A stretch of DNA of 64,000 bases, from positions 38,172 to 102,171 of IMG/VR virus record IMGVR_UViG_3300042275_000481, one strand, 5' to 3'. The stretch is from a virus (lineage: Duplodnaviria; Heunggongvirae; Uroviricota; Caudoviricetes). Position 1 is the first letter of the stretch. Each line of letters begins with the position of its first letter. Below are positions 18,178 through 63,768 of the stretch, piece by piece. The translations under genes and the position numbers were made by a program. The notes below the pieces were generated by a model, which saw only the letters and a program-made list of their open reading frames with translations, made no database searches and was not told the origin of the DNA.

Positions 18178-19363
18178 CTTAATTGGACTATATCTTCTAT
18201 AAATTGTTTAATTTATAGCAGTGCACTTCGAGTGGTATCGATCTCCACCCTACTCCGCTACATTCATCACGGATAGTCTCTTGACCTTCCTATTTCTAGG
18301 CTTGGCACAGGATAATTAGGTAACTTCCCCTGTTAGCATAACTTTTAACTATCATTTCCTATAGTTCCAAAAGTAAGTTATACACCTCGCTGATCCACGA
18401 GTTCACACTGTTTTACTACGACACTGTTATCGGTATAATATTTTCTAGGTTTTATTTCTAAATCTGGTGATATTAATAAAATATTAAATTCTTTTAATGA
18501 ATTATAATCTTTTTTATAAAATGTATCTAATATGATTTCTATATTATTTTCTTCACTGTAAGGTATTCTTAAAAGAGTTATCGAATTTTTTCTACAATAA
18601 TCATTTTTCATCTTATCATGAATTAATGCTGTTTTGTATCCTCTTTTTGAAGAATTAAAATGTTGTTCGCCATCAAATTCTATTAATTGATTTAGTATAT
18701 CTATATAATCAAATGGCATTTTCCTTTTATCTTTACAATCATCAAATCTATATTCACTATCTAAATAAAGATTTTTATCTTGTAGATATTTTGCAATATT
18801 TGATGAACCACTTCCTGGAATAGCACCAACTCTTTTAAGGTTTGCACATTCAGGACATCTTTTTCCTTGTTGAAAATTATTTGGAGTAGTATAAAAATAT
18901 GTTTCACAAATCTTATGCTTAACCCTTACTCTCATTTTGTTATTCCCAGAGTAAACAGGAGCATCTAATAATTCATAATCTGGATCATTAAATATACCTT
19001 CTAAATAATTTTCTTTCACGAGATATTGCCCTCTGCCTATTTTTTTCCGATTTTCATACTTTACTCTTCTTAAATTTTTTGTCTCGCAAGAACAGCGAAT
19101 CTTTCCTTCTTGAAATAATTTTCAGGAAGTGTTTATAACTTCACCACAGTCATGTTCTATCATAATAATAGATTTATTATTTTTATAATTCTTGAAATCA
19201 TATTTTTTACTTAAATTAAACCTAGAATCTAATTTTTTTATTTTCTTTTCTAATTCATTTCTTGTTAATCTCTTTGGCATAATTTTTCTCCTCCATATTA
19301 TAAATTACATAATATATTGTTTAGATTATGAATCAGAAAAGTTATAAAAATTTAATTTCTTTT
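18178..19363 (-). mobile_element. group I intron (minus strand) in the RecJ-like gene, carrying a decayed homing endonuclease gene
   Basis: Exon 1 ends with U of GAT (GDYD). The intron ends in G (..aag) before gct-gac-ggt (ADG). R element (revcomp of ggatagtctcttgacc, 18271-18286) and S element (revcomp of gactatatc, 18186-18194) are present in the correct order for a minus-strand transcript. Confidence 0.6.
18378..19280 (-). pseudogene. frameshifted intron-encoded homing endonuclease (zinc-ribbon + Vsr/DUF559-like nuclease family)
   Basis: ATG at 19278-19280 with a GGAGG RBS. The N-terminal module (IEHDCGEVI) reads in one frame, then shifts (~19120) into the 18378-19019 ORF. That ORF starts with GTG and contains CPECA and FDGEQHF...LLRIPY. 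Confidence 0.5.
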
Positions 19364-19621
19364 ATCGTAGTCGCCAATAATACAATAATGTTTATCCTTA
19401 TTATTAGCAATATAATCCACAAATTGTTCCTGATTTCCAATACCTGTGATTTCTGATTGTAAAAACTTTGTCAACCAGCTCTTCTTGTACAAATCTTGGA
19501 AATCCTCAAAAATCTTTTGAGGGTCAGAATAGCCGCTTTCTTGAAAGATTACAGACTCAACTTGTGAGTAGCCTTCAATCATCGGGTAATCTGATAATCT
19601 TTTTTGTATGTATTTCCTCAT
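19364..19621 (-). CDS. RecJ-like DHH-family exonuclease, exon 1 of 2
   Basis: 89-aa ORF ending ...HYCIIGDYD(KRN*). GDYD is the N-terminal half of RecJ motif I. The stop codon lies within the intron. Confidence 0.6.
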
Positions 19622-19637
19622 TTATATCTTTCCTCCT

Positions 19638-20078
19638 TTAATTTCTTAACATTAATAGCACCTTCAATTCATCTGATTGGTTTTCTTCTTTAACCCACTG
19701 ATTAAGCCGTGGGCTTACGTTTGATATTTTTATTTTATCGATATTCTCTAAAAAGAATAATTCTGAGAATTTCTGAGTTGATTCGAATGTTCTCCAAAAC
19801 ATATAGATTTCATATTTTAAATCTTTGTCACCTACGATACTATTAAAGAGGTCCATTACTATATTTAATGAAAATGTATTCAAAACTTTATGTCTCATTA
19901 CAATGCATAATGCGTTCACTTTCATATAAGTTCCTCTTTGAGAATCAATTATTTTAGGTAAATATACTTTGTAGAAGCTATTTGGTAATGTATCATATCT
20001 TTCAAGCACATAACGATAACCTTTTGCTCGTATATCTTCTTTCAAATGCTTTCTTTTTGCTCTTTGATTTTTACTCAT
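19638..20078 (-). CDS. hypothetical protein
   Basis: 146-aa ORF with an RBS. Confidence 0.4.
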   Translation of the reverse strand: MSKNQRAKRKHLKEDIRAKGYRYVLERYDTLPNSFYKVYLPKIIDSQRGTYMKVNALCIVMRHKVLNTFSLNIVMDLFNSIVGDKDLKYEIYMFWRTFESTQKFSELFFLENIDKIKISNVSPRLNQWVKEENQSDELKVLLMLRN

Positions 20079-20121
20079 AAAATACTCCTTTCTAATTGAT
20101 TGTTGATATGGGTTTTAATAT

Positions 20122-20160
20122 TAAAAAAATAGCGGGAATAATCCCGCTATTTATCATAAT
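20122..20160 (-). terminator. intrinsic terminator (agcgggattattcccgct plus T-run)
   Basis: Hairpin followed by a TTTTTTT run on the minus strand, directly downstream of the 20163 ORF. Confidence 0.55.
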
Positions 20161-20162
20161 AT

Positions 20163-20720: not shown

Positions 20721-20748
20721 GATTTCCTCCTTTTAATTTATTTTTTTG

Positions 20749-21765
20749 TTACTTAATACTCTTCTTAACTAAATATTCTGCAGTTCTAATAAGTTGTGCA
20801 GCATAACTCATTTCATTATCATACCAGGAAATGACCTTAACAAGCTGTTTCCCGTCTACTTCAATAAGTTGAGTTAATTGTCCGTCAACTAATGAACCGT
20901 AAGTCATACCGATTGTATCGCTTGAAACGATTGGGTCTTCTGTGTAACCAAGTGTTTCATTTGCAGCAGCTTTCATTGCGTCATTGATTTCTTGAACTGT
21001 AACATTTCTGCTAAGCTCAACTGTCAAGTCTACAACAGAACCTGTTGCTGTTGGTACACGTAAAGCAATACCATCCAATTTACCTTTTAGTTGAGGTAAT
21101 ACAAGTCCAACTGCTGATGCAGCGCCTGTAGATGTTGGAATAATATTTGATGCAGCTGTTCTGCCGCGTCTTGAATTTACACCTTTTGGATGTGGTCGAT
21201 CTAATGTCACTTGGTCATTTGTATAAGAGTGAACTGTTGTCACATAACCTTTAACAATACCAAATGAATCATCTAAAACTTTTGCAACTGGTGCTAAACA
21301 GTTTGTAGTACAAGATGCACCACTAATTACTGTTTCTGAACCATCAAGTGTTTCATGGTTTACACCAAATACGATCGTTTTTAAGTCACCTTTTGCTGGT
21401 GAATTGATAATAACTTTTTTGGCACCTGCTGTGATGTGCGCCATTGATTTTTCTTTTGACGCATAAAAGCCGGTACATTCTAAAACGACATCAACATTTA
21501 ATTCTCCCCAAGGAAGTTGTGATGCATCTTTTTCAGCATAGATTCTAATCTTTCTCCCGTCAACTACTAAGTAGTCTCCCTCAACGGAAATCTTATCCGA
21601 CATATAACGACCTTGTGTGGTGTCATATTTTAATAGGTGTGCTAATTCAGCAGGATTAGATAAATCGTTAATCGCTACCACTTCAAATGTTGGATTGTCA
21701 TGTACAAGTCTGTACGCTAATCTCCCGATACGACCGAAGCCGTTAATTGCAATTTTTGCAGCCAT
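20749..21765 (-). CDS. gap: type I glyceraldehyde-3-phosphate dehydrogenase
   Basis: N-terminal NGFGRIGR Rossmann motif. Active-site [10 protein letters not shown]. Full-length 338 aa with conserved WYDNE near the C-terminus. Confidence 0.9.
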
Positions 21766-21863
21766 AGTTTATTTCCTCCTTTTATATTTTATTTCACTTC
21801 TCGAACCAATATTATAATATATGTTTAAAGAGAAAGATAGACCATATTGGTCTATCTTTCATT

Positions 21864-22412
21864 TTATTCAGGAATTACTAATATACCATAATTTCCATCA
21901 TTACGTTTGTAAATAGTCGAAATTAAGGCATTATTATCTTTATCTTTGAAAATAAAGAATGAGTGTCCAAGAAGTTCCATTTCTTCAATTGCTTGTTCAC
22001 GAGTTATAGTTTCTAACGGAATAAACTTTTCCCTTGCAATCTTTCCTGTTTCTTCTTGTTCTTCATTATAAATTGCTTCTAATTCTTCTTGTAAATCAAG
22101 AATATTAAAAGCTAATTTATTTCCATTTCTATGCTTCATTCGCATAGTTTTATATTTTCTAATTTGTCCTTCTAATTGATTAACAACTTCAATAACAAGA
22201 GCATAAAAATCTGTACCAGAATGTGACGCTCGGATGTTGCCTGGAATTGCTATTTCTAATTTTAGTTGATGTCCTTCTTTCTTGAGCGTTGCTCTTCCAT
22301 CTACACTATCAACAAACCTCTTTAACTTTTCTACCTTCTCAATAACATAAGTTTTCATTGCATCGGTAAATTCAATTTTTTTCTTGTCTGAGTAGAATTC
22401 CATAATTTTCAT
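21864..22412 (-). CDS. hpf: ribosome hibernation promoting factor (long HPF/YfiA family)
   Basis: N-terminal RaiA/HPF fold region. C-terminal dimerisation domain ...EEMELLGHSFFIFKDKDNNALISTIYKRNDGNYGILVIPE is characteristic of long-form HPF of Firmicutes. Confidence 0.75.
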   Translation of the reverse strand: MKIMEFYSDKKKIEFTDAMKTYVIEKVEKLKRFVDSVDGRATLKKEGHQLKLEIAIPGNIRASHSGTDFYALVIEVVNQLEGQIRKYKTMRMKHRNGNKLAFNILDLQEELEAIYNEEQEETGKIAREKFIPLETITREQAIEEMELLGHSFFIFKDKDNNALISTIYKRNDGNYGILVIPE

Positions 22413-22518
22413 CCCTTCTTTTTTAATTATAATTTATTTCTTCTTCAGGTCATATTTATAATATATAAATAAAAGCATATTTACCCCCTTAAGTCTAGAG
22501 GTAAATATGCCTTATTTT

Positions 22519-22770
22519 TTATGCTAAGAACGCCTCTAGATCCTTTTTAGGTCTATAACCGACCATGGTTTGCATGTCATCTCCATCTAATTTAATTATA
22601 GTTGGGACTCCAGCAATTCCATACGACATAGCTTCTAATTGGCCTTCATCAGTGTCAATGTAATATTCTGTCATATCTAGGTTTTGTTCTTGTTTAATTT
22701 CTTCTAATATTGGTGTGATCATCTTGCAAGCGCCGCAATTTTGGGATTTGAATAATAATATTTTTGCCAT
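22519..22770 (-). CDS. thioredoxin/NrdH-like redoxin
   Basis: 83-aa thioredoxin-fold protein with a CGAC redox motif. cis-Pro region GVPTII. Next to the RNR gene. Confidence 0.65.
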   Translation of the reverse strand: MAKILLFKSQNCGACKMITPILEEIKQEQNLDMTEYYIDTDEGQLEAMSYGIAGVPTIIKLDGDDMQTMVGYRPKKDLEAFLA

Positions 22771-22985
22771 TGTTAGTTCTCCTTATTGTTTTTGTACTTT
22801 TTTAATCTTTGCCCAATCGTTTGTTCAGAGCAGTTAAAAATTCTTGCAATTTCTCTTTTTTTAAGGCCTTGCTCCAGTAATTCTTTCATTTTTTTGTCAT
22901 CTTTTTCTGAAAAATTTTTAGATACTGTATTCTTTTTAGCTTTACTGCTAGATTCTAAAAGTTTAATTGGAATTTTTATATGTTC

Positions 22986-23555
22986 TCATGCTTTTCTCTG
23001 TAATATTTTTGCAACATAACGATCGGATATTTTAAATTTCTTTCCGATTTCTATCATAGATATTCCATCTGAGAATAATTTGAATATTTCAATAATATTT
23101 TCTTTTTTTAACTTTGAATTCTGATGGTCTTCACCTTTTAAAGTGTTTATTAATCCATTTTTATAAGCATGAATAACATTTTTACTAATTGACATTATTT
23201 CTAAATTTCCAATTTTATTATTTAGTTTATTTCCATCTTTATGATTTACGATAAAATTTTTTGGAATTTCACCTATAAAATTTTCTGCAACTAATCTATT
23301 TATTCTAAAGGATTTATTCTTATTATTTTTATGAAGTTTTATAGTATAATATCCTCTTTCTAAAATTCTTTTTTTTATATAGCCATATTGATTTTTAACC
23401 CTGCCAAAATTTGAAATATAATAGTTATTATATCCTTTAATATTCTTTCAAATTTCGTCTAAGATAGGTTTTTGATCTTCAACGATAGGTTTATTAAAAT
23501 TTGCTTTAAGTAAACCGGCTTTAACAGCATGTTTTATATTTTCAGATTGGGTAAC
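22986..23555 (-). pseudogene. decayed HNH homing endonuclease (second NUMOD4-HNH module plus NUMOD1/HTH tail) interrupted by in-frame TGA codons
   Basis: Reading-through translation gives ...NNLE*VTQSENIKHAVKAGLL...DEI*KNIKGYNNYYISNFGRVKN...VNHKDGNKLNNKIGNLEIMSISKNVIHAYKNGLIN... The second TGA falls at the conserved Trp of the NUMOD4 WK-I-GY motif. The 3' part corresponds to ORF 22986-23195. Confidence 0.45.
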
Positions 23556-23870
23556 TCATTCTAAATTGTTCATATGGTTATTGAGTTTGTTTCCATCTTT
23601 ATGATTAACAAAAGATTTATTACTAGGATTATCAATAAACATTATAGCTACTAATCTATGGACCATGAATTGTCTTCTTTCCATATTTTTCTGTAAAGAT
23701 ACTCTATAGTATCCATTTTCAGATAATCCTAGTTTTTTCAATTGTCCCTTATATTTTTTGTTATTAATAACCCTATCTAATGATCTTATATTTCCTAGAT
23801 TTGATACTTGATAGTAACTCTCGTATCCAATTATATCTTTCCATATTTCTGTCATATTACCTACCTCCAA
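23556..23870 (-). CDS. HNH homing endonuclease (NUMOD4 + HNH_3 motifs), free-standing
   Basis: EIWKDIIGYESYYQVSNLGNIRSL (NUMOD4) and VHRLVAIMFIDNP...VNHKDGNKLNNHMNNLE (HNH). Confidence 0.65.
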   Translation of the reverse strand: MEVGNMTEIWKDIIGYESYYQVSNLGNIRSLDRVINNKKYKGQLKKLGLSENGYYRVSLQKNMERRQFMVHRLVAIMFIDNPSNKSFVNHKDGNKLNNHMNNLE

Positions 23871-24465: not shown

Positions 24466-25938
24466 CGTTTTATTCTATCAAGGTCGTTAATCTTGATACG
24501 TTCTCTTATGAACTGCTTATATTTTCATATAAGACTAGACTATATCACGATCCTTCTAAGGATCCTTTCCATTTCGATTTAAGGGATTTTCACCCACCAC
24601 TTGGCCCTACTCCTGTTGACAAATTTATATTAGCGCTTGTCCTTGGGATAGTCGTTGCACATCTAATTTAATTTTAACTTTTCTTTTAAGGTTTCTTCTA
24701 TTTTTAATTTGATTTTTTTCTTAGAGAGACTAGATACATCAATCCTCAAGAGCTGCTCGCCTGCAAAGTTATTTCTAATATTATCCCTTTGTTTAATAAT
24801 TTCAAGTTCCTTTGCTAGACTATCTCTATTAAATGATTCTTTATGAAATCTTCCATCAATTTCTATAAATTTAATATCATCATGTTCTATTTTAAAATCA
24901 AATTCAAATTTATCATTACCTATTTGTTGATAGTAGTTTTGTTGAAATATTATGTTATTTTTTTCTAAAAATAAACGAGTTATTTTTTCTCCATAAGGTT
25001 CTCTTTCACAGGTACATTGTAAATTTTGGTTTATCATATTTACAGTAGTATACCATTCTCTTGGTTTATCATATTTACAATTAATATGTTTTACCTTTAT
25101 TTTAGAATGAGCATTTTTGTAGTTAGATGAATCTAATAATTCAAAACCTTTCTGTTCTAAGAGTTTTTTAACATCTTCAATAGATCTTGTCCTAGATTTA
25201 ACTCGTTTTTCCTGGCCACAAATAGGACACCCAAAGCCGCGAGTTAAATTATTTGGAGAAACTTTTCACTCATGACCACAAATATTATGTCTATGTAATA
25301 TCTTAGTATCTTTATTAATATATTCTTCTAAAGCAATATATTCATTATTATAAATATCATATAGATTCTTTTTATACTCTTGGTTCGTAAGCTTAAATGT
25401 ACCATTGCAAATAGGACATCCATGTTTACCAGATAAAATAGAATTAGGCGTTGTTTTTCACTCATGACCACAAATATTATGTCTAATAGTGATAGCTGTA
25501 CGAGTTCCTTTATATTCTTCTAATGCAGTATATTCATTCTCATAAATATGATGGAGTTTAAATCTAAAAGCTCTATCGTCAAGTATTCTTCCACTACAAA
25601 TAGGACATCGCTGATTTGATGATAAAAATTTTACCAGTGGCATTTTTCATGTGAAACCACAATCTAGATGCTTAAATTCCATCAGTGATTTATTATTAGT
25701 ATAATCTGATTCATTAGAAATTAAAATATATTTTCCATGCCCTTTTTCAAAAACCTCATTTTTTATATCAACAAATTGTTTTCGTTTCATACAATACACT
25801 CTCCCTCTTATTAAAGAATAATATATTGTTTAGTTAAAATTAAATTATTTTGCTCAGGATTACCATATCTTTTGACTTAGGCTTCCCTGAATTAAAAAAG
25901 TTTTCTTATACTATTGCTAGTATAAGGCGCAATATTTT
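24466..25938 (-). mobile_element. group I intron (RNR intron 2) carrying a heavily decayed homing endonuclease gene
   Basis: Proposed 5' splice site after U of ..gctggcgt. The 3' end ...aataaaacg (omega G) is homologous to the end of the ORF-less Clp intron. R (24645-24660) and S (24548-24556) elements present. The 5' portion (aattcagggaagcc...atcctgagc, 25850-25905) resembles the 5' portion of intron 3. Confidence 0.55.
24663..25790 (-). pseudogene. multiply frameshifted homing endonuclease (zinc-ribbon + Vsr/DUF559-like family)
   Basis: ATG at 25788-25790 with an AGGGAG RBS. Fragments are MKRKQFVDIKNEVFEKGHGKYILISNE..., then ...NQRCPICSGR... (25458-25643), then the nuclease-domain remnant IEIDGRFHKES...LLRIDV (24663-25037). 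All are in different frames. Confidence 0.5.
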
Positions 25939-26798
25939 ACGCCAGCGCTACTTGAATTAGCAACTAATCCAAGTGTTCCTGAAGGTTTAACAGCACTTAC
26001 ATTAAGTGAATGAGATAAACCAAGTTCATCAGCATACTCATCTGCAGACCTTCTAATTACTCCGTAAAGCCAATCCATAAATTTATTTTCTTCTTCAATA
26101 TTCATACCTGTTGCTTCAATCATATCCATCCATGAAGATGGTGAAACACCGAGTAATCTATCTTCTTCTTGTGTTTTGTCCCACTCTTCTAATTCAAGCG
26201 TGTTCATGGTGACACGATAAGCAGAACGAGTTAAAACACGAAGGTCTTTTTCAAGTAAATCATAGTTGATAGTTTTATCTTCATTTAGGTAAAATACAAC
26301 ATTGAATGTAACTAAGTTACATGTCTGTTTTGAGCGTAACAAAATCTCGGCACAAGGATTGAGTCCTCTAGCTTGAGGGTGTCTCTTCTTGATTTCACTT
26401 TCATTCATAAATCCTGGTTCACCGAATGACTTGATATTCTCCATCCAAGCAGTTACTTCTTCCTTAGTTGGTTCATATCCTTCTTCGACAACCATTGTAT
26501 TATTTGAAATCCAATAGTGAGAAATTTTTCTATCACTAAAATCCGTGAAGTTTGTTTTGGCTTTTGCCATTTCATCATCTGTTCTTGAGAATAGTGCAAT
26601 CATAGCACTTCTTCTTACACCACCAACAACAATCGCTTCAGCAATTGAGTTTGCAATGTGCATCATATGAATTGGTCTTAGTTTTCCATCAATTGGCGCT
26701 TTTGTAAGAATGTTTCCGTGACTATCTAAATAATCTCCAGTAACAACTTCATGCATCTTTTTGATAGATTGAATGAATGGTTCGGCACCACTTGCATA
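25939..26798 (-). CDS. nrdJ: class II (NrdJ-like) ribonucleotide reductase, exon 2 of 3
   Basis: Contains GGVRRSA, the active-site loop NPCAEI (N-x-C-x-E) and the KPSGTLGLVANSSSAG motif. The exon ends inside the Val codon ahead of intron 2. Confidence 0.7.
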
Positions 26799-27987
26799 CA
26801 TATGTTAGCTCATAGTTTCTTATGAGATCAGACTATATCTTCAACCCTAGAACTATCTAGGATTGCCTCGCACTTCGAACTATAAGTTCTACTCTACTCA
26901 CTTCTTTACTTAGATTATGTTCTAAGCTATGTTTTCGATAGTCGTTGCACGTTCAAATATATCATCTAGAATTTCATGTATCTGACTAATTTGATTATAT
27001 CTTATTCTTATTAAATTGATATTATTTTCTTTTGCTATTTCATTTTTTCTGAAGTCATTTTCTTTCAAAATTTTGAATGATTCTTCCCCACCCCAATTAT
27101 CTTGAGGTATAAAATGTTGTATTCCGTCAAACTCAACTATTAAATTTTTTTCTTTAATCCAAAAATCCAATCTTAAATTTCCAAATAATTTATGCGTTTT
27201 ATTATATTTATATTTAATATTTTTAGAATTCAAATAATCTATAATAATTCGTTCACCATTTGAAGCTTGACAAAATGGACATCTTTGACCTTGTTGAAAG
27301 TCATTAGGTCTCATAACAAAAGTATTTTTGCATTTTTTATGATAATGTTTTATTTTTGTATATGAATTAATATATTCCTCATTTACAGTATATTGATTAG
27401 AACCTAATTTCTTAACTAAATTTTTATACTGTTGATGTGTTTTTCTAATTCCGCCATTGCAAACCGGGCATCTTCTTCCAGCTGAGATGAATTTATTGGC
27501 TGTTGCATAGTAATCATTTCCACATTTTTTATGTGTAAATTTCAACTTACTGTGATTATTCTCATAATTACCTTCAACTATATACTCATCTTGTACTAGA
27601 TCATATATTTGTTTTTGTATATCTTCTAGTGTGAATGCATGAAATTTTTTTCTTTTTTCATTAGCACATAACGGACAACGTCTTCCTTGTTTGAATTTAT
27701 CAGGTGTTACTGAATAAATATTACCGCAAGCAAGATGTTCTACTTTTAATTTAGTTTTCGAAGTAGTATAAGTTTCTAACCATTTATACTCATTCGCATC
27801 ATCAAATTTTTTATTAATATCATTTAAGAATTTTTTATGTTTAGTCATTTTAATACAGTCCCTTCTATAATAATATATAAGCTTCGCTCAGGATTGTCTC
27901 CATCATTACATGGTAAGAGTTTCCCTGAATTCACGAGGTTGCTATAATATATTGTTATATTAAGGTGGCTATGCTTTTGGGGCGTTA
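26799..27987 (-). mobile_element. group I intron (RNR intron 1) carrying an intact homing endonuclease gene
   Basis: Exon 1 ends ...TFGG with U before the in-intron TAA. The intron ends in G just before tat-gca-agt (YASGAEP). R (26927-26940) and S (26830-26838) elements present. Confidence 0.6.
26922..27848 (-). CDS. intron-encoded homing endonuclease: four tandem zinc-ribbon (CxxC...CPxC) modules plus a C-terminal Vsr/DUF559-like PD-(D/E)xK nuclease domain
   Basis: Repeats of H..CGN.Y...P..F..G.RCP.C. C-terminal IVEFDGIQHF...D...K...INLIRIRY. The 3' end reads through the R element of the intron core. Confidence 0.6.
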   Translation of the reverse strand: MTKHKKFLNDINKKFDDANEYKWLETYTTSKTKLKVEHLACGNIYSVTPDKFKQGRRCPLCANEKRKKFHAFTLEDIQKQIYDLVQDEYIVEGNYENNHSKLKFTHKKCGNDYYATANKFISAGRRCPVCNGGIRKTHQQYKNLVKKLGSNQYTVNEEYINSYTKIKHYHKKCKNTFVMRPNDFQQGQRCPFCQASNGERIIIDYLNSKNIKYKYNKTHKLFGNLRLDFWIKEKNLIVEFDGIQHFIPQDNWGGEESFKILKENDFRKNEIAKENNINLIRIRYNQISQIHEILDDIFERATTIENIA

Positions 27988-28986
27988 ACCACCGAAGGTT
28001 TTGAGTGGCTCTCCAGCTGGTCGGATGTTATTAAACACCATTCTAATATTCTTATAATCATGGTCAATTTCATAACTCATGTATTTTAAGAATTCAGTTA
28101 CAGCTTTACCCCAACCATCTCTGCTGTCTCCAACAATAATTGAAATAGTTCCATCAAGTTTTAGAACCTGAGTTTTGTCTTTTCTCATTGTCTTTGGAAG
28201 TGGGTTGTAAGGCACAACTTGTAATTTTACATCGCTTCTAAATCTTGGAAGTTTTTCTGCAACATCCCAAGTAATTCTGTATCCAACTCCAGCACCAACA
28301 GATAATAGATATAAAATATCATAGAATGAGTCTAATGTGTCTGGTTCAATAAATGAGCAGTTGAATAAACTTAAAGGATAACGTTCTGCAGCACTTGATC
28401 CACCTGTGAACATTGCACGTCCACTAAGGAAAGCTCTAAGATTAAACTGCATGTCAAATAATTGCTCAGCTTCTCTTTTAAGAAACTGCATAACTTTTTC
28501 TTCACGTTCACGAGTATCCATATTGATATTATGGTCTGTGGCACGTAAAATTGTTTCTTTAAATGTTTCTCGTCTACCTAATTCAACTACATCTCGACTA
28601 TATGTTCTCAAATAAGTAAATTTACTTACAGGGCCCATATGTTTTGGGTAGCTGTCATAGTTCACAAGGAAACTCGGTGCTAAGTACTCAGAGCTATAAA
28701 CAACATCTTTCAACGATTCTCTTCGTTTCGCTCTTGCATTTCTTCTTAATATATAATGCTCAACAGCTTCAGGATATTCCCTGATTGCATGTTGCACTTT
28801 GTTTTGAATCTCTTCTATTCCAATACCATCATAAACAACTACAGATTTAGCCATCTCTTGAATCTTTGAGTATAGTTCCTCTGCTCTTTCTTCTCCATAA
28901 GTCTCTCTGAACGCTTTGTAGATTGCCTGTTCGATTTTGGAGACATCGAATTTTTGCAATTCACCAGTTCTTTTACGAATATACAT
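27988..28986 (-). CDS. nrdJ: class II (NrdJ-like) ribonucleotide reductase, exon 1 of 3 (ATP-cone N-terminus)
   Basis: N-terminal ATP-cone (RKRTGELQKFDVSKIEQAI). Exon ends ...KTFGG. Confidence 0.7.
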
Positions 28987-33216: not shown

Positions 33217-33491
33217 GCTAAACTATCTCTTTATATTTCTATAAAGAACTGACTATATCTTCACCCGATAAACGGGGTACTGCATTTCGAGTTCGCTTGA
33301 ACCCTACTCCCATAAGGGATAGTCGATGAACCTTCATCTCATTGAGATGTTTGGCTGCGGATTGCCCAATCTCTTGCCTTTTTACCATCTCTCCGACGTT
33401 ACTCTTCGATTAACAGGTAGCTAAGAGCTCTAAGGGGTTTCCCGCAATTAACAGTATTTTCTTTTGTATATCACTATACAATGGGGCGTAT
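33217..33491 (-). mobile_element. ORF-less group I intron (Clp intron B)
   Basis: R (revcomp of gggatagtcgatgaacc, 33316-33332) and S (33251-33259) elements. Conserved gcggattgcccaatct and gctctaaggggtttcccgcaatta blocks. Proposed 5' splice site after U of tgg-att. The 3' splice site is ambiguous: ..tagcg or ..gatata. Confidence 0.5.
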
Positions 33492-33628
33492 AATCCACCC
33501 AGGGGCACTACCAGTAATTTTTGTTACATCCATTTCAGTACCATATTCACCCATATTTAATTTGATTAAGTTTCGTTCAGCACCACAGAATTGCTTTGCA
33601 ACAATTTTACAAGTTTCGGTTTTACCGA
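33492..33628 (-). CDS. ClpC/ClpA-like ATPase, exon 2 of 3 (46-aa micro-exon)
   Basis: Encodes VGKTETCKIVAKQFCGAERNLIKLNMGEYGTEMDVTKITGSAPGWI. This is the remainder of the D2 Walker A (GPTG|VGKTE) through the ...G-A-P-P-G-Y-like motif. Confidence 0.6.
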
Positions 33629-33938
33629 CCGTTTATATTCCATCGAAATCGTTAATTTCAATGCGTTCTCTTATGAACTGCTTATACTTTCATATAAGAC
33701 TAGACTATATCATCACCTTTTTCAGGTGGTTTACATTTCGACTCACTTGAGTCTACTCCTTACGGATAGTCGTTGAACTTTTCTCTTATTAAGAGACTTA
33801 GCTGCTGATTGCCCAATCTACACACTTTTCAAGCCTTGGCTTTTCCTCACGGATCGCAGTGGCAGTGTAGCTCTAAGGGGTTTCCAGCAATTAGTAAACT
33901 TTGCTTATGTAAATTTCTTTACATAGGGGCTAAATTTA
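33629..33938 (-). mobile_element. ORF-less group I intron (Clp intron A)
   Basis: Exon 1 ends GPTG (ggt, U) followed immediately by TAA. The intron ends ..ataaacg (G) before gtcggtaaaacc. R (33754-33768) and S (33693-33701) elements, plus the gctgctgattgcccaatct and gctctaaggggtttccagcaatt blocks. Confidence 0.65.
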
Positions 33939-35408
33939 ACCCGTAGGACCTGCAAATACCATTGATGTCAATGGTTTCTCTGGATCGACTAATCCTCTTT
34001 CAATGTATCTTAGGTTCTCAATAACACGGTTCAATGGTCTTTCTTGACCTAATAGAACACGTTTCAACTCTTTTGCAGTTGCTTCTGTTTTGTTGTCAGC
34101 AATATTGATATCATATTTGACTTTAATCGCTGTGCGAACATCATCTGTGAAAACAATTTCACCGTCTTCATTGAAAACAGTTGAACTGGCAAATGCAAGT
34201 TCCAACATATTAATTGCTTTTGCTGGATTTGCTTGGTCAAGGGTGTATTTTTCAGAATAGTCTAAGACTTTTCTTACTAAATCGTCCTCAGCCTTCTTAC
34301 CAAAATATTCTTCGATATCAGGTTGTACACCTTTAAGAATTTGATAAGTTTGTTGTTTTGTAGGCTCACTAATGTTTACCTTATGGAAACGTCTTTCTAA
34401 TGCTTTGTCTTTGCTGATGTGTTTTTGATATTCATCATCAGTTGTAGTCCAAATCATTTGAATTTCACCACGAGTGATATATGGTTTAAGAATATTACCA
34501 CCACTTGCAGCTCCTTCTGCGTCTCCTAATTTCACCATCATATGTGCTTCATCAATGAACAGAATTACTTCTGGATTTTCTTTGACAAGTTTAATGATGT
34601 TCATAAGTTTTTCTTCAAAATCACCACGATATCTAGTTCCAGCAACTAATGCACCTGGATCTAATTGGTATACAATTTTGTTTCTGAACTTTTTAATAAC
34701 ATTTTTATTATTAATACGATTTACGAATTCATATACTGCAACAGTCTTACCTGTACCAGCAGGTCCAACGAGAATCGCATTTCTAATTGATTTTCCTGAC
34801 AAAGCCATTTGAATTTGATTAACAGCATTGTCTGCACCGATTACAACTGGTTTCGCTTGTTTCACATATCTGTTAAGATTTGTTAACTCACGGATTTTTT
34901 CCAATGCATCGATTTCTTGTTTAGTTGCAACAATATTAAATGCTTCAACAATTTTCTCAGACATTTGGTCAACTTTTTGAGTTGAACCGCCGAGAACAAA
35001 TTCAAGAATACTTCTAAGTTTATAACTTGGGTCTGAAAATAACACTTTAATAAGGTCTTCAACTTGCATTTGTCTGCGTTGTGCAAGAGCATCTCTTTTA
35101 AGTTGATTTCTTACAGCATTACCTTCTTCATGCCAAGTAACTTCAAAACGTTCTCCGCCTACATCCAATCCAGGATATAGTTCCAAGAATACCTTTTCAA
35201 AATCTTCTCCCTTAACTTCGTATTCTTGTAAGATATTCGTTAGAGTTTCATACGTCTCAGCAAATCTTTCAGTATCTTTATTCTTCTTCAAGAAGATTGT
35301 TGTACCTAAGAATAGATGAGGTGTACCAACCCAATTTTGATAGTTCTTAATTGCAATTTGTCCCGCTTTTTGCGAAATCATTTCGACTTCTTGTGATAGT
35401 GCCTTCAT
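33939..35408 (-). CDS. ClpC/ClpA-like ATPase, exon 1 of 3 (Clp-N repeat, D1 AAA+, start of D2)
   Basis: D1 Walker A GPAGTGKT. Walker B ILFIDEAH. ALERRF. Ends at ...MVFAGPTG (first half of the D2 P-loop). Confidence 0.75.
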
Positions 35409-35907: not shown

Positions 35908-37383
35908 CTAGAAGAATCCGTCTTGTTGTTTTTTCATTTTAACCCAATCAGCGTCTTTTTTCAACGCTTTAACTTCACCATATGGTTCTTTCAGTGATAA
36001 ATGTTTTTCATCTGCAAGAACGATCCAAAGATTTCTTAGTGTTCTTGGTTTTGGAATTTCAGAATCACCAAAGCCATCAGTAAAGTATACCATTAGCGCA
36101 TTTTTATATGCACCAGTTTCATTGATATGATTGATTACAGGAATGAAAGAAGTTCCTCCACGACCTGTAACTTTTGTATTTACATCACGAGGATATTTTG
36201 CATCATAAATTCTTCCAATTTCAGCATCACATTCGATGATAGTAACTTTTGTATCATAATCTTTAACGATATTGAAAATTTCGTTGATTACATACTCAAT
36301 ATCACTATTTGACATAGAACCTGATGTGTCAATTGCAACAACAAGTTGTATATGTCTCTTTGGAAGTTTACCAGATAAGTCAGCACGATATGGTTGACGT
36401 CTGTTTAGACGTGTTTTAGTTCTTCTGTATGGAACAGGAACTGTACCCATATACTTTTTAAGAATCTGTTTCCAACTAATTTCTGGTTTTCTAAGAAGAT
36501 GTTTAATCTGTTCGATTACACCTGCAGGCATAAGTCCACGAGATTTTTCATCCATCTTATTATAAACATCTGCAATTAAACCTTTAACTCTGTCTTTCGC
36601 ATCTTCACTATCAACTTTTTCCCATTGATGTGGTGCTTGACCATTTTGATTATTTTGAGTTGCAGGTGCATTAGGATCTGGTTCACCTTCTCCTTGACCT
36701 TGTCCTGGCATAGCAAACTTGCTAGGTTTACTTTTCTTATTACTATCACCATCTTGTGGCTTAGGACCAAAGTTCTTCAAGAACTTATAATAATAGTCAA
36801 TCGAACTGTTTTCTTTCGGTGTTCTATTACTTTCTTGATTCATTTTTGCGGTTGTGTAAGCGTCAGGTGGAAGACGTAATGTCTTCGATCTGTCGTTTTT
36901 ATCTAATCTTATATCTTGTTGAACCATTGATGAAACAGATGCACTTGAAGCTTTTTCAAGGTTCACATGTTGTTCTGGATCATTTGCACCATTTAACTCA
37001 CCAAATACTGATGGATGATTATAAACTAATCTCAAAATCTCAGAAATAACCAATGCTGTAAATTCAGCATATGGATATTTAGCTAAGAATAATGGATTGA
37101 AATGCAATTCAAGTGGTTCTTTACTTACATCAATATCAAGTGGGCCTCGAATATTGAAGTTAACTTTTGTTGTCATGTTAACTAGAACTGAGCCCCAGAA
37201 AACATCGTGTGCCATGATTAAGTGAATTTTTTCAAATTCAATTACTTGCTCAAAAGCCTCTCTAAGAGGAGGGAGGATCTTTTCATCGACCTTCCCTTCA
37301 TTTATCAAAGCAGAAGCCTCAGCTTGATCTACAAGTTCACGGCAGATATTATATACTTCTAAAATATTAGTCTTTCCTGCCAT
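35908..37383 (-). CDS. von Willebrand factor A (VWA) domain protein, partner of the MoxR ATPase (DUF2201/ViaA/CoxE-like)
   Basis: MIDAS motif in VVAIDTSGSMSNSD. Further VWA elements (TDG..D). Long N-terminal region with a Gln/Pro/Gly-rich linker. Immediately downstream of, and tightly spaced (10 bp) with, the MoxR gene. Confidence 0.7.
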   Translation of the reverse strand: MAGKTNILEVYNICRELVDQAEASALINEGKVDEKILPPLREAFEQVIEFEKIHLIMAHDVFWGSVLVNMTTKVNFNIRGPLDIDVSKEPLELHFNPLFLAKYPYAEFTALVISEILRLVYNHPSVFGELNGANDPEQHVNLEKASSASVSSMVQQDIRLDKNDRSKTLRLPPDAYTTAKMNQESNRTPKENSSIDYYYKFLKNFGPKPQDGDSNKKSKPSKFAMPGQGQGEGEPDPNAPATQNNQNGQAPHQWEKVDSEDAKDRVKGLIADVYNKMDEKSRGLMPAGVIEQIKHLLRKPEISWKQILKKYMGTVPVPYRRTKTRLNRRQPYRADLSGKLPKRHIQLVVAIDTSGSMSNSDIEYVINEIFNIVKDYDTKVTIIECDAEIGRIYDAKYPRDVNTKVTGRGGTSFIPVINHINETGAYKNALMVYFTDGFGDSEIPKPRTLRNLWIVLADEKHLSLKEPYGEVKALKKDADWVKMKKQQDGFF

Positions 37384-38948: not shown

Positions 38949-39599
38949 TTAGTTTTCACTAAGTTGTATGTTTTCATAATCTAGCTCCTCATGGAAGATA
39001 ACTTTCTTCGATTGAGGTTGTTGATTTTTTATCATTTCAATTATTTCTAAGAATTTGTCAAAATTATTATCGTACATTTTAAGATAATTAAAGTTTGACT
39101 TCTTAACTGCTTCATCTTGTGCTCGTTCATCATCAATATCTCTTAGTCTGTAATGTGTATTGTCAGATGCTTTAATGTTCACGATAAGATTAAGGCTTGT
39201 AATATAAAAATCTGGAATGTGAAATCTTTGATTACCTTCTGCATCTATATACGGAAAAGTCATTGGAGCTGGCCCCATAACATCACCTGGGTTGTCCCAA
39301 TCAAGATAAACATCGAGATATTCTAAAAATTTTCTTTCATAACTTCCAGTATATGGAGTTGTAGTTCCATCTTCCCATTTGTATTCTCCAGATATGCTTC
39401 TATTTGAAAGCATTTTCTTTTGTTGTTCTGGTTCATCAAGTAAATGGACTTTTCCATATTTTTGTTTCATTCTTCTCTTAAACATTTCACGATATGCTTC
39501 TCTTGCTCGTTCATCAGCAAAGCGTTCATATCGGCCAGTTGTAACGTTAAACTTAGTTGGCTTGCCAGTCATAACACACTTTCCATGCTCTTTTGTCAA
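38949..39599 (-). CDS. hypothetical protein (TTG start), separated by a single in-frame TGA from the upstream zinc-finger ORF
   Basis: 216-aa ORF. The same frame as 39615-39746 continues through one TGA (...IVFN*RNKYALTKEHGKC...). Confidence 0.4.
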   Translation of the reverse strand: MTKEHGKCVMTGKPTKFNVTTGRYERFADERAREAYREMFKRRMKQKYGKVHLLDEPEQQKKMLSNRSISGEYKWEDGTTTPYTGSYERKFLEYLDVYLDWDNPGDVMGPAPMTFPYIDAEGNQRFHIPDFYITSLNLIVNIKASDNTHYRLRDIDDERAQDEAVKKSNFNYLKMYDNNFDKFLEIIEMIKNQQPQSKKVIFHEELDYENIQLSEN

Positions 39600-39614
39600 A
39601 GCATATTTATTTCT

Positions 39615-39746
39615 TCAATTGAAAACAATTTGCATTGCTGGTAATCCGTGCAGTTCATCCTTATGTTCTTTCTCCATATGGTTGTATAATGCATCTTCAA
39701 CTATATAGTTTTTCTTACAAAATGGACATTTATGCATTTGTGCCAT
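39615..39746 (-). CDS. small C2H2-like zinc-finger protein (43 aa)
   Basis: ATG with a GAGGTGAG RBS. KCPFCKKNY...HMEKEH (C-x2-C...H-x3-H). Confidence 0.4.
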   Translation of the reverse strand: MAQMHKCPFCKKNYIVEDALYNHMEKEHKDELHGLPAMQIVFN

Positions 39747-57983: not shown

Positions 57984-58328
57984 TTATAGGGCACCTCCTT
58001 CTTTCTCATCATACTTCATTTTTTTCTTAATACGCTTTTCTTCTTTTACAATAGATTTAGGAAAGTTATAAACAGTTACAAGCACTATATCTTTTTCTGT
58101 CATAGAAAATATAAATACAAAGCTTCCGTAAACTTTGACAATTTGGTTTTTTCCCTTATAACGTTCAAAATACTTTTTACCTTTTTCACTATTGAAATCA
58201 TCTATTTCCATTCCAAAAATAAATGCTTTCTCTGCAAAACGTCTCAGCTTTCCTATTGTTATTCTTTTACCTGTTTCTAGGATTCTTTCCTTACCACGTT
58301 GTAATGCGTGGTCACTAACAACAATCAT
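57984..58328 (-). CDS. hypothetical protein
   Basis: 114-aa ORF overlapping the upstream radical-SAM gene stop. Confidence 0.35.
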   Translation of the reverse strand: MIVVSDHALQRGKERILETGKRITIGKLRRFAEKAFIFGMEIDDFNSEKGKKYFERYKGKNQIVKVYGSFVFIFSMTEKDIVLVTVYNFPKSIVKEEKRIKKKMKYDEKEGGAL

Positions 58329-60397: not shown

Positions 60398-60407
60398 GAT
60401 GTATCCT

Positions 60408-61496
60408 TTATAGTTCTATAATATTTTCTAAAATTTGTTCAATCTTATTAAAATTCCAATAGGGTATCCTAATAAGTTTTATACCTTTTTGCTTACAATA
60501 TTCATCTTTTAAATGGTCATTGTATTTTTGTTCAGACAACTTATCTAAACCGAAAATAGGTTCATAATGAAATTCACCATCATATTCTATTAAGGTATTA
60601 CTATCAGATAGAAAAAAGTCAAATCTTAGTGGATTGATAAATTTCAAATCTTCAAACGAAAACTCTCTTTCAAACTGTATCTTTCTATTTTCTAGCCATT
60701 CTGATATTTTATTTTCACCCTTTGATGACTTACAAATAGGGCACCTATCACCAGATAGGAATCTTGTTGGACTAACGTCATATATATTACCACACTTATT
60801 ATGTTTTATTCCTATTTTTGTATGTGTGTTTGTATAATCTTCTAAAACACTATATTCGTCGCCTATTAGATTAAAAACTTCTTCCTTAAATTCTTTGGTG
60901 GATTTCTTAAATTTTCCATTACAAATAGGACACCTATCACCAGATAGGAATCTTGTTGGACTTACTTTATATTCACTATCACACACAAGATGACGCATTT
61001 TTATCTTTGAGTCGCAATTAACATAATCACTTAAAACACTATATTCGTCACCTACTAGATTAAAAACTTCTGCTTTAAAGTCCTCGGTAGATTTTTTTAT
61101 CAGTCCTGCACATTTTGGACAACCATGTCCTTTTAAGATATTTACAGGTGTTGGTTCATATTCAAAACCACATTTTTTGTGCCTCATAAGTATAGGAGTT
61201 TTGTTATTTTTATAATCACCCAATACTTCATATTCAGGTCCTAATATATCCATAACATCGTCTTTAAAGGTATCAATAGTTTTTCTTAGACCGTTTCCAA
61301 CTTTTATAATAGCACATTTTGGACAACCATGTCCCCGATTTATCATTCGGCTAGGATGTGCTTCAAATATATTTCCACACTTCTTGTGCTTCATGGTTAT
61401 TTTTGTATTGGTGTTTGTATACTCTCCTAAAACTTCATACTCATCACCAAATTTTACTTCAACTTCTTTAATAAATGATTCAGTAGTTCTTTTCAT
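60408..61496 (-). CDS. free-standing homing endonuclease (zinc-ribbon repeats + Vsr/DUF559-like nuclease)
   Basis: Five tandem H.KCG..(Y/F)...P...L.G.GCP.C modules. C-terminal IEYDGEFHYEP...D..K..YC...GIKLIRIPYWN. Confidence 0.6.
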   Translation of the reverse strand: MKRTTESFIKEVEVKFGDEYEVLGEYTNTNTKITMKHKKCGNIFEAHPSRMINRGHGCPKCAIIKVGNGLRKTIDTFKDDVMDILGPEYEVLGDYKNNKTPILMRHKKCGFEYEPTPVNILKGHGCPKCAGLIKKSTEDFKAEVFNLVGDEYSVLSDYVNCDSKIKMRHLVCDSEYKVSPTRFLSGDRCPICNGKFKKSTKEFKEEVFNLIGDEYSVLEDYTNTHTKIGIKHNKCGNIYDVSPTRFLSGDRCPICKSSKGENKISEWLENRKIQFEREFSFEDLKFINPLRFDFFLSDSNTLIEYDGEFHYEPIFGLDKLSEQKYNDHLKDEYCKQKGIKLIRIPYWNFNKIEQILENIIEL

Positions 61497-61558
61497 AAAA
61501 ACCTCCCTATACCTAGAATGTATAAATAAATTATTTGTTCTAAGTAAAGGGATTATTT

Positions 61559-62218
61559 TTACAGTTCAATTATGTTACTCTTATATTTTGTTTGGTCGAT
61601 GTCCTCAATATAGACACCCAAGCTTTCTAAAAGAATATATCCATTTTGCATATTTTTACTTACCATTGTTCGGTAGTCAATAAGTGGTCGTAGATATTCA
61701 GGAATTCTTTCCACACCTTTTGGAACAGCAACAACGCTCATTCCAAATCGTGAAATATCAATTTCAGGTTCATCTACGTTTCGATTAAATACTGTGCGAC
61801 TAATTGCGCCATATTTTTTCGGATAAGTATCTTTTAGTTTCTCTAATTCTGGATGATTTTCATCTACTGTTTTTAACTTAAGTAGATTTACTTTTTCTGG
61901 TGGAACTATTTGATTTTCAGGTTCTAGCGCATTCCATATAATTGCTCCTCTAACCTGTTCAAGCGTAGATGGATCTTTATATTGCTCAAATTGCTCTATA
62001 CTCTTTGGAAGTGAATATAATAATTCTCCGCCTCTTAGTGATTCTTCAATTTCTAAACCTAATTCATCAAATTTATTAATAATAGTTCTAATATTAATAT
62101 CTTCCGCTGACAGAATATCTTCCTGTAAAATTGTCGTAAATTGTTCACGTAATTTCTTAGGAACGTTTGTTTTCCTTATGGCTAACATATATCTTCCATT
62201 GAGTTCGTTAACTCTCAA
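61559..62218 (-). CDS. 3'-terminal exon of an intron-interrupted gene of unknown product
   Basis: The ORF begins with TTG inside conserved intron-3' sequence (..cataagagaacg|cattgagag..). The true acceptor is probably ~62180-62200. Confidence 0.45.
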   Translation of the reverse strand: MRVNELNGRYMLAIRKTNVPKKLREQFTTILQEDILSAEDINIRTIINKFDELGLEIEESLRGGELLYSLPKSIEQFEQYKDPSTLEQVRGAIIWNALEPENQIVPPEKVNLLKLKTVDENHPELEKLKDTYPKKYGAISRTVFNRNVDEPEIDISRFGMSVVAVPKGVERIPEYLRPLIDYRTMVSKNMQNGYILLESLGVYIEDIDQTKYKSNIIEL

Positions 62219-62455
62219 TGCGTTCTCTTATGAACTGCTCATACTTTCATATGAGATGAGACTATATCTTCATCTTTCGATGTTTCCTGTTTCGGACCAC
62301 TTGGTCCTACTCCTTACGGATAGTCGTTGAACCTTCATCTCATTGAGATGTTTGGCTGCGGATTGCCCAATCTACACACTTTTCAAGCCTTGGCTTTTCC
62401 TCACGGATCGCAGTGGCAGTGTAGCTCTAAGGGGTTTCCCGCAATTAAGGAAATT
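62219..62455 (-). mobile_element. ORF-less group I intron (unknown-gene intron 2); boundaries approximate
   Basis: R (62318-62333) and S (62249-62257) elements, plus the gctgcggattgcccaatct and gctctaaggggtttcccgcaatt blocks. Nearly identical to Clp intron A. Confidence 0.55.
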
Positions 62456-62461
62456 TTATAA

Positions 62462-62550
62462 GAGCATAACTGTTTACCCTTAATATCAAGAACTGGTTTG
62501 TCTAATAGACGCCCAAGTTCACCTGTAATTAAACCGGCATACATAATTTT
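62462..62550 (-). CDS. internal micro-exon of the unknown intron-interrupted gene (approx. boundaries)
   Basis: Only one frame is open between the two introns: KIMYAGLITGELGRLLDKPVLDIKGKQ... It begins right after an intron-terminal G (..gagtttaattg|aaaatt). Confidence 0.4.
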
Positions 62551-63768
62551 CAATTAAACTCGCTAAGTTTAATTCGCTTTCGCTGCTCATATTTTCATAT
62601 GAGATAAGACTATATCTTCAGATATTTATTGAACGTAAATATCTGTCTTCCTTTTCCAATAGGCTTCTATTGTACTCGCATTGCGATAGTCGTTGAACTT
62701 TTTTCTTAAAATTAATTCTTCAAGTATATTTTCAAGTTGTTTATAATTTTTATATGATAATCTTAATAGTGTATACTTAGATAATTGTATAATATTATTT
62801 TTTCTATTGTCTCGTTCTCTAATAACATCAATAGATTCAAATAATGATTTTTCTTTAAAATGTTGTATTCCATCATATTCAATTATTAGATTTAAAGAGT
62901 CAATAATAATATCTACTCTTAAATCCGTATTGAATAATTTAGAATCAAATTCAAATAAAATATTATTTTTTTCTAAGAACTGAATTATTTTTCTTTCACC
63001 TTTAGAAACTTTCTTAGAACAAATAGGACATCTACTAGCAACAGATTTTGATATGAAATTGTTCGCTTTTACGTCCCATTCATGACCACATTTATTATGT
63101 CTTAGTTTAATTTTTGTTCTAGTGTTTGTATATGGTGATATTAATGAATACTCATCCCCAACAGTTTCCTCTAGTTTTCTTTTAAACATTTCTTCAGTCC
63201 AAGTTCCTTTCCCAGAACAATACGGACAAGAATTTTTTTGATTCAAAAGATTATTTGCTCTCATTTTGAATTCATGACCACATTTATTATGCTTAAAAAT
63301 TGATGATTTATTTGCATAACCTGAATAATCTAATACTGAATACTCATTATCTAATTCTATTTCTAGTCTTTTTATAAGATTTTTTTCAGTTAATCTTATA
63401 GAACCTGAACATTTAGGACACCTTCTTCCATTATTAAACGTATTAGGTGCTACTAAATACTCATGGCCACATTTATTATGTCTTATTAAGATTTTAGTTT
63501 TTGAATTTATATAATCATTCCCAAGAACTGTATATTCCATTCCAACTTGATTTTTTACTTTGTGTTTAAAACTTTCTAGTGTATCTTTTTTCATAATATC
63601 ACTCCTTAATAATTTGTTCAATGAGTGACAACATGAAATAAAAAGTTCTTAATTTTAAGAAACTTAGCTGCTGATTGCCCAATCTTTCAGATTTTCAAAC
63701 ATTCACGCTCACTTTTGCAAGTCACGTTGTAGTTCTGAAAGCTCTAAGGGGTTTCCAGCAATTAAAAA
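62551..63768 (-). mobile_element. group I intron (unknown-gene intron 1) carrying an intact homing endonuclease gene; 5' boundary approximate
   Basis: R (62674-62689, inside the 3' end of the HE ORF) and S (62618-62626). 5' blocks gctgctgattgcccaatct (63661-63679) and gctctaaggggtttccagcaatt (63742-63764). Confidence 0.55.
62626..63621 (-). CDS. intron-encoded homing endonuclease (zinc-ribbon repeats + Vsr/DUF559-like nuclease)
   Basis: Four H.KCGHE(Y/F/W)...N....RCP.CSG modules. IIEYDGIQHF...D..R..K......LLRLSY. Confidence 0.6.
   Translation of the reverse strand: MNKLLRSDIMKKDTLESFKHKVKNQVGMEYTVLGNDYINSKTKILIRHNKCGHEYLVAPNTFNNGRRCPKCSGSIRLTEKNLIKRLEIELDNEYSVLDYSGYANKSSIFKHNKCGHEFKMRANNLLNQKNSCPYCSGKGTWTEEMFKRKLEETVGDEYSLISPYTNTRTKIKLRHNKCGHEWDVKANNFISKSVASRCPICSKKVSKGERKIIQFLEKNNILFEFDSKLFNTDLRVDIIIDSLNLIIEYDGIQHFKEKSLFESIDVIRERDNRKNNIIQLSKYTLLRLSYKNYKQLENILEELILRKKFNDYRNASTIEAYWKRKTDIYVQ

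Follow-up and report, generated by a model that had tools for sequence, protein, structure and literature searches.

Zinc-ribbon and Vsr-like homing endonuclease genes, some apparently written with TGA for tryptophan, in a phage with stop-codon-recoded relatives

A 64-kb stretch of Caudoviricetes DNA (64,000 nucleotides of IMG/VR record IMGVR_UViG_3300042275_000481, hereafter the window) carries five genes, named A to E and all on the minus strand, in which tandem zinc-ribbon repeats precede a Vsr-like nuclease domain. These genes are members of an already described phage homing-endonuclease (HE) family, to which the window adds new, divergent members. Several lines of evidence indicate that copies D and E, together with two unrelated nuclease genes, are intact, with TGA written for tryptophan (Trp). 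We think it very probable that all five copies are intact HEs of the CapR/DUF4379 plus EDxHD/Vsr type, and that the genes using TGA for Trp homed in from recoded relatives and are translated only with a UGA-decoding tRNA. Here we describe the architecture, fold, conserved catalytic residues and intron locations of the five copies, together with their presence/absence polymorphism relative to close relatives.

Five members of a known homing-endonuclease family

The original prediction, made from the letters of the DNA, had placed five copies of one nuclease family in the window, and all five are present. Copy A (26922..27848) encodes a 308-residue HE with three zinc-ribbon units and a nuclease domain, copy B (62626..63621; probable ATG at 63594) a 322-residue protein with three units and copy C (60408..61496) a 362-residue protein with four; every Trp codon of A and B is TGG. 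Copy D (18378..19280) spans 300 codons with two units, the first degenerate, and copy E (24663..25790) 375 codons with four units, the fourth degenerate. Repeat numbers had been given as three, four and five, but none of the copies has five. A regular expression and a hidden Markov model (HMM) built from the intact copies define the unit as H/C-x2-C-G-x2-[W/Y/F]-x3-P-x2-F/L-x-G-x2-C-P-x-C, and the unit HMM gave E-values of 1e-21 to 1e-31 in the intact copies. Two Pfam domains, CapR (PF21817; E 1e-7 to 5e-12) and DUF4379 (PF14311, 'probable treble clef zinc finger'; E 1e-6 to 1e-13), scored above their cut-offs in A, B, C and E(W), where the suffix W denotes translation with TGA read as Trp; both were reached weakly in copy D. 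The predicted tandem zinc-ribbon repeat is therefore real.

All five copies matched the phrog_559 profile (E 1e-75 for A, 1e-73 for B, 3e-140 for C, 3e-42 for D(W) and 3e-57 for E(W)). Overall, the phrog_559 E-values ranged from 1e-37 to 1e-140. PHROG 559 is matched in 843 phage records, and in one Staphylococcus phage record the annotation 'VSR homing endonuclease' is already in use. No phage record is more than ~44% identical to a window copy, and the copies share only 30-40% identity with one another, so that they are not recent duplicates but either old paralogues or independently acquired genes. Scanning the whole 64 kb in six frames with the HMM revealed no further VSR-type copy.

The same architecture, with 3-5 CapR/DUF4379/DUF723-like domains and an EDxHD/Vsr-like nuclease, has been published as an outgroup of the EDxHD/Vsr homing endonucleases, with thousands of UniProt matches (PMC12350094, NAR 2025). 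Like that outgroup, the window copies place several ~60-residue domains before a ~100-residue Vsr-like nuclease and occupy both introns and free-standing sites, as described there for large Firmicute-type phages including AR9/PBS1-like jumbo phages. They differ in having two to four repeats rather than three to five, and in including TGA-for-Trp copies, which are unmentioned there. Reading the genes as HEs that combine zinc ribbons with a Vsr/DUF559-like nuclease was thus right in substance; the suggestion that the architecture was unusual was not, the proteins belonging to a known HE family under another name. We found no biochemical study of the outgroup in the literature.

Each copy ends in a nuclease domain of ~105 residues. 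Its Pfam match to DUF559 is marginal (22 bits against a cut-off of 20.6 in A and B), and structure comparison gave a Vsr/PD-(D/E)xK-like fold, in line with the expected DUF559/Vsr-like assignment; the nearest solved nuclease domain after Vsr is 3r3p, a proven HE. The predicted C-terminal motif (I/V)E(F/Y)DGxQH...D..K...LIRIPY was recovered in an alignment of 18 nuclease domains that included all five copies. In this alignment D293, E304, G307, H310 and D327 (copy C numbering) are invariant and E261 and K330 near-invariant, so that E261, D293, E304, H310 and D327 are all either invariant or at least 90% conserved. Their order is that of the active-site residues of I-Bth0305I (E170, D196, N208, H213 and D222; PMC3239194), with an Asp-to-His spacing of 17 in both, a mapping made by order and spacing rather than by an inspected superposition. 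The window family thus carries the composite Glu, Asp, x, His, Asp catalytic motif of EDxHD nucleases, save that copy D lacks the first conserved Glu.

Against PDB sequences, neither phmmer nor either of two profile searches retrieved 3r3p or 1vsr at E up to 10, and the one protein to appear was 3hrl, of the DUF559 type (E 0.03). Because sequence profiles fail to reach I-Bth0305I or Vsr, the link to EDxHD lies at the level of fold and residue pattern, which fits the published term 'outgroup'. None of the five copies has an HNH match in Pfam or the beta-beta-alpha-metal HNH motif; given this and the Vsr/PD-(D/E)xK-like fold, the PHROG 559 label 'HNH endonuclease' is a misnomer. Pfam likewise found no NUMOD or helix-turn-helix (HTH) domain in the N-terminal region, which consists of zinc-ribbon repeats.

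Known proteins share parts of this design. I-Bth0305I (PDB 3r3p; PMC3239194), the EDxHD prototype, binds DNA through two NUMOD2/HTH motifs where the window copies have zinc ribbons; it shows no detectable sequence-profile similarity to them (E above 10), and the equivalent of its N208 is Glu in the window copies. Escherichia coli Vsr (PDB 1vsr/1cw0) is a single-domain mismatch-specific nickase with an internal zinc site and an N-terminal intercalating segment and, unlike the window copies, has no repeat array and is not mobile. The DUF4379 proteins of kinetoplastid mitoribosome assembly (PDB 6yxx_E2 and 6sga_Fd, mt-SAF33) have the same Pfam domain and fold as the window units (profile E 5e-5, Foldseek E 6.5e-5) and also form tandem arrays that contact nucleic acid, but they are eukaryotic, organellar and RNA-associated, with no homing nuclease role.

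Introns and empty sites

The predicted placement of A, B, D and E in introns, and of C as a free-standing gene, was borne out by exon junctions, Rfam matches and relatives. Syntenic IMG/VR contigs of a relative (L105/L106, L139/L140 and L141), with core proteins 65-84% identical to those of the window, carry uninterrupted genes for ribonucleotide reductase (RNR), a RecJ-like DHH phosphoesterase and DNA polymerase and lack all five copies. The relatives' IMG/VR records are IMGVR_UViG_3300031645_000921, 3300031601_000002 and 3300031601_000004. These uninterrupted host genes fix the intron bounds and identify the elements as insertions relative to close kin. Copy C lies 62 nt downstream of the DNA polymerase stop and is absent in L141.

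The RNR gene has two group I introns on the minus strand. The first (26799..27987) holds copy A. Rfam Intron_gpI matched it below threshold in two pieces, 27795-27997 and 26809-26932; U is the last base of the 5' exon and G that of the intron, and the exon junction FGG/YASG is contiguous in L106, where the intron-less allele joins AGTGGAGAACCGCTCAAAACTTTTGGGGGC to TATGCTTCAGGAGCAGAACCATTTATTCAA. The second (24466..25938) holds copy E and has a partial Rfam match at 25792-25948; its junction SSAGV/HMSHSP is likewise contiguous in L106, where the second intron-less allele reads ...GCAAGTAGCGCCGGAGT followed by ACATATGAGTCATAGCCC. Copy D lies in a group I intron of the RecJ-like gene (18178..19363, minus strand), which had no Rfam match and was delimited by its exon junctions and the intron-less L106 allele (...ATTGGAGATTATGAT followed by GCTGATGGAATTATGGCA). 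Exon 1 there ends ...GDYD with a terminal U, and at the 3' end ...AGAAGATATAGTCCAATTAAG precedes ADGIMATTAM, the intron end reading AGAAGATATAGTCC...G; the spliced product GDYD/ADG restores RecJ/DHH motif I.

Copy B occupies a group I intron of the DNA polymerase gene (~62586..63794, minus strand, 3' boundary approximate), with Rfam pieces at 63630-63760 and 62588-62620; comparison with the uninterrupted polymerase gene in L141 ends exon 1 after ...AAGAAGAAT at 63795. The same gene contains a second group I intron without an open reading frame (ORF), at 62238..62540 on the minus strand, which is a complete match to Rfam RF00028 (91.7 bits). The twin introns are split by a mini-exon of ~45 nt (62541-62585) with approximate junctions, and for this mini-exon we found none that satisfied both the reading frame and the U and terminal-G rules.

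It could be argued that the five proteins are not HEs at all but DNA-repair or regulatory zinc-ribbon proteins, such as Vsr-like nickases or DUF559 proteins, that lie in introns by chance. Joint Genome Institute (JGI) annotation names some homologues 'very-short-patch-repair endonuclease' or 'Zn ribbon nucleic-acid-binding protein', DUF4379 arrays occur in RNA-binding mitoribosome assembly factors, and HE activity in the outgroup is itself deduced from sequence. We regard this explanation as a very distant one: group I introns that interrupt essential genes at conserved sites house four of the five copies, syntenic relatives have precise empty sites and none of the five, and 3r3p, the nearest solved nuclease domain after Vsr, is a proven HE.

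Other intron-like insertions were seen in the same genomes. Two ORF-less group I introns at 33229-33506 and 33681-33948 (minus strand; Rfam 85 and 98 bits), ~175 nt apart, lie directly downstream of an FtsH-like ATPase/protease ORF (33936-35408) and probably split that gene into three exons. In L106 a different insertion of ~1.07 kb (10113-11179) interrupts the RNR gene at residue 150 of the window's exon 2; its ORF has LAGLIDADG-like motifs, assigned by eye (FIYGTMLGDSY and WFADDGT), and uses TGG for Trp.

In-frame TGA codons in four nuclease genes

Copies D and E had been taken as decayed, D as frameshifted and E as shattered. Both instead form single frames that run from an ATG with a Shine-Dalgarno (SD) sequence to a TAA or TAG stop with no break other than TGA. 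In copy D, which has a strong SD (GGAGGAG), the sole interruption is a TGA at 19122-19124. Copy E, also with its SD and ATG intact, is continuous from the ATG at 25790 to a TAG at 24663 apart from three TGAs (25647-25649, 25458-25460 and 25266-25268). These occupy the conserved Trp of units 1-3, each directly after H-x-x-C-G-x-x, a position that is Trp in 67% and aromatic in 97% of 406 homologous units. Once TGA is read as Trp both genes are intact, and D(W) and E(W) align to phrog_559 across residues 4-264 and, in one stretch, 7-371.

Reading TGA as sense throughout the window merged frames at only two places beyond D and E, and both are nuclease genes outside the five-copy family. The first (22773..23855, minus strand, 360 codons) is a free-standing tandem NUMOD4-HNH_3 HE gene with a C-terminal HTH; its three TGAs (23556-8, 23448-50 and 22986-8) fall at NLE[W]VT, EI[W]K and KA[W]EH, with the HTH after the last. 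The second (38949..39746, minus strand, 265 codons) is a free-standing gene that encodes a C2H2 finger and a DUF7487 nuclease (phrog_15137 'endonuclease', E 8e-71); gene callers see only its 216-residue tail, and its one TGA (39615-39617) stands at a Trp position that is TGG in a 65%-identical homologue in contig L017. The TGA positions in the HNH and NUMOD4 domains are Trp in 29 of 37 and 71 of 73 loci, respectively, figures that come from one metagenome scan with search patterns back-translated with TGG and relatives at most 53% identical. Overall, seven of the eight TGAs stand at conserved Trp positions, the exception being that of copy D. SD and ATG are kept in all four genes, and the base after TGA is a purine in all eight cases and A in six.

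TGA accounts for 8 of the 12 Trp codons in the four nuclease genes and for none of the 119 in all other long ORFs (Fisher p = 3e-10), and in-frame TGA is absent from ~70 other window genes. All eight frame disruptions are TGA, with no frameshift, TAA or TAG in 1,300 codons; the probability of eight TGAs is ~1e-5 under a single-hit neutral nonsense model, and <1e-7 if all are taken as TGG-to-TGA changes. We could also follow the NUMOD4-HNH_3 gene into L106, where an orthologue lies at the same junction between the RNR and thioredoxin genes. It is 52.5% identical in protein and 62% in DNA, is in frame throughout and repeats the three TGAs at the same Trp positions, with a fourth in addition. Between the two genes pN/pS is 0.52 (bootstrap 95% interval 0.44-0.63), a test that covers the HNH gene only. 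A diverged, in-frame orthologue that keeps its TGAs under such a ratio does not behave as a pseudogene.

These results bear on whether D, E and the other TGA-containing genes are pseudogenes inactivated by nonsense mutation. Under the standard code their frames are interrupted, no suppressor tRNA is seen in the window, copy D is short of one conserved Glu, and degenerate units are found in D (the first zinc ribbon) and E (the fourth). Decay nevertheless seems highly improbable to us given the uniform nature of the lesions, their place at conserved Trp in seven of eight cases, the retention of these positions under purifying selection in the diverged orthologue and the full-length, single-stretch family matches obtained once TGA is read as Trp. 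G-to-A hypermutation of a deaminase-like kind was rejected as a source of TGG-to-TGA changes: conserved Cys and Gly codons and the motifs are intact, there is no TAG, and the TGAs are kept in the diverged orthologue.

TGA terminators are also rare in the window (2 of 49 long frames), but we rejected this as evidence of recoding, since a 42-kb PBS1 control gave 2 of 32; the two HE copies in that control have no in-frame TGA. The only non-nuclease TGA terminator (58325-58327) overlaps the start of the next gene as ATGA and looks functional. The gene it ends has two starts across assemblies (212 and 229 residues) and a weak Radical_SAM match. The replication module possibly holds a further nuclease gene: an ORF of 491 residues at 35908-37383 (minus strand) matches phrog_1314 'HNH endonuclease' (E 7e-49) and has only TGG at its Trp codons.

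Recoded relatives and the origin of the TGA genes

The window's virion-region genes have orthologues in contigs L139 and L140 whose frames stay open only when TGA codes for Trp; these contain 7, 4 and 6 in-frame TGAs (17 in total), 10 of which align to TGG in the window phage. Recoded regions (L139 6675-18168, L140 and L141 10267-14543) take in virion-region and some other genes with 4-7 TGAs each, and the relatives' replication genes are standard-coded. This combination marks the relatives as stop-codon-recoded phages like those of Borges et al. (bioRxiv 10.1101/2021.08.26.457843). TGA makes up a similar share of Trp codons in the window's nuclease genes (8 of 12) and in two recoded late genes of the relative (11 of 15), and none in the window's own late genes; import from recoded relatives by homing is therefore favoured.

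Borges et al. reported that a group I intron endonuclease in recoded phages prefers TGA for Trp, proposed that its production is thereby delayed, and noted that standard-code relatives have already acquired a TGA suppressor tRNA. As in their 'Agate' phages, HE genes with TGA for Trp sit within standard-coded replication genes of the window, TGA seldom serves as a terminator, and the relatives L139, L140 and L141 combine TGA-recoded virion genes with standard-coded replication genes. Unlike the 'Agate' phages, the window phage shows recoding only in the four nuclease genes, and it is an AR9/PBS1-like relative with a multisubunit RNA polymerase. Its lineage was placed solely through an RNA polymerase subunit of the multisubunit type, ~33% identical to that of PBS1/AR9.

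Presence of the NUMOD4-HNH_3 gene also varies at short range. This gene is missing from a 98.9%-identical strain (L008), whose RNR gene differs over its final ~25 nt, which indicates a recent gain or loss. L008 also lacks a 146-residue ORF at 19638-20078; the sequence beside it (window 19672-20075 compared) is only 91% identical, and the site is another indel hotspot between strains that are nearly identical.

We propose that the N-terminal array of two to four zinc-ribbon (treble-clef) modules would bind an extended DNA site and that the C-terminal Vsr-fold nuclease would cut with its conserved Glu, Asp, His and Asp, presumably with Mg2+ and probably as a dimer like I-Bth0305I. Cutting would be directed at alleles of the host gene that lack the intron or the HE, carried by a co-infecting phage, and these would acquire intron and HE gene through recombinational repair. 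Copies D and E and the two unrelated nuclease genes most likely entered a standard-coded genome in this way from relatives that read TGA as Trp. A UGA-decoding tRNA could be supplied by the window phage from outside the window or by a co-infecting recoded relative, and dependence on it would restrict endonuclease production to late or mixed infection.

Several observations sit less easily with this proposal. The three virion-region genes of the window phage have 18 TGG and no TGA, and give no sign that the phage decodes TGA itself. We found no tRNA of any kind in the 64-kb window or in ~75 kb of relatives' contigs, the contigs scanned including L001, L105, L106, L139, L140 and L141. No close relatives of copies D or E were found (copy E was searched in IMG/VR). 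Copy D, whose first Glu is missing and whose TGA is off the conserved Trp, at a position that is usually Pro, may be impaired, and the endonuclease activity of all five copies is predicted from their sequences.

How the TGA genes might be switched on can be read in more than one way. One reading, which we hold tentatively and at somewhat less than even confidence, is that the four genes, from three unrelated families, are silent passengers in a standard-coded phage and are turned on only in co-infection with a recoded relative. If the phage has no suppressor tRNA, the TGA nuclease genes would be active exactly when a homing target is present, and the difference in code would shield the recipient as a firewall and serve the endonuclease as a sensor of co-infection.

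An alternative within the same import scheme is that the phage carries a late-expressed UGA-suppressor tRNA (anticodon UCA) outside the window, so that the HEs are made late in every infection, a timing device like that proposed for the 'Agate' phages. The four genes are free of other lesions and keep SD and ATG, TGA terminators are rare, and there is precedent both for suppressor tRNAs in standard-code relatives and for a TGA-biased intron HE (Borges et al.). Besides the lack of a tRNA in the window, however, its virion-region genes show no drift towards TGA when set beside the 17 TGAs of the relative, the rarity of TGA stops is uninformative given the PBS1 control, and the TGA terminator at 58325 looks functional. 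We consider a suppressor carried by the phage itself slightly less likely than silent carriage.

Alternatively, the TGAs could be real stops, selected because they keep a toxic endonuclease at trace levels, with near-cognate tRNA-Trp reading UGA weakly in Firmicutes. Low-level decoding of UGA as Trp has been reported in Bacillus subtilis. With the TGAs at Trp positions, readthrough by tRNA-Trp would restore the wild-type protein; a purine, mostly A, follows every TGA, and the TGAs are conserved in the 52%-identical orthologue. Yet with three TGAs in one gene the losses would compound until almost nothing was made, essential virion genes of the relative, with up to seven TGAs each, require efficient decoding in that lineage, and the similar TGA shares noted above fit an equilibrium under true TGA-to-Trp decoding. 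Such attenuation appears improbable, and we continue to favour import of the genes from recoded relatives.

The window offers a clear example of intact selfish genes that look like pseudogenes when annotated under the standard code: a standard-coded phage stands beside TGA-recoded relatives, and mobile nucleases are the only genes there that use the recoded codon. This phage pair could show whether stop-codon recoding times or gates HE expression, and whether, as a code change begins, mobile introns introduce recoded codons into genomes that follow the standard code. The precise empty-site alleles could serve as cleavage substrates, and the modular zinc-ribbon array is a candidate programmable DNA-binding scaffold.

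Contigs recovered by look-up of window proteins all matched the window at 100% identity, with breaks at the HE copies. Independent JGI and Logan assemblies (L006 and L019-L024) all end in or beside VSR-type copies, and the repeated zinc-ribbon modules appear to fragment short-read assemblies. An annotated phage collection held no near-identical DNA match to the window, and a 947-residue core protein had no tblastn match. At 20749-22770 (minus strand), genes for a glyceraldehyde-3-phosphate dehydrogenase (338 residues), a long ribosome hibernation factor (S30AE plus a C-terminal domain) and a thioredoxin lie in a row, an order kept in L106 at 74%, 49% and 31% identity, respectively.

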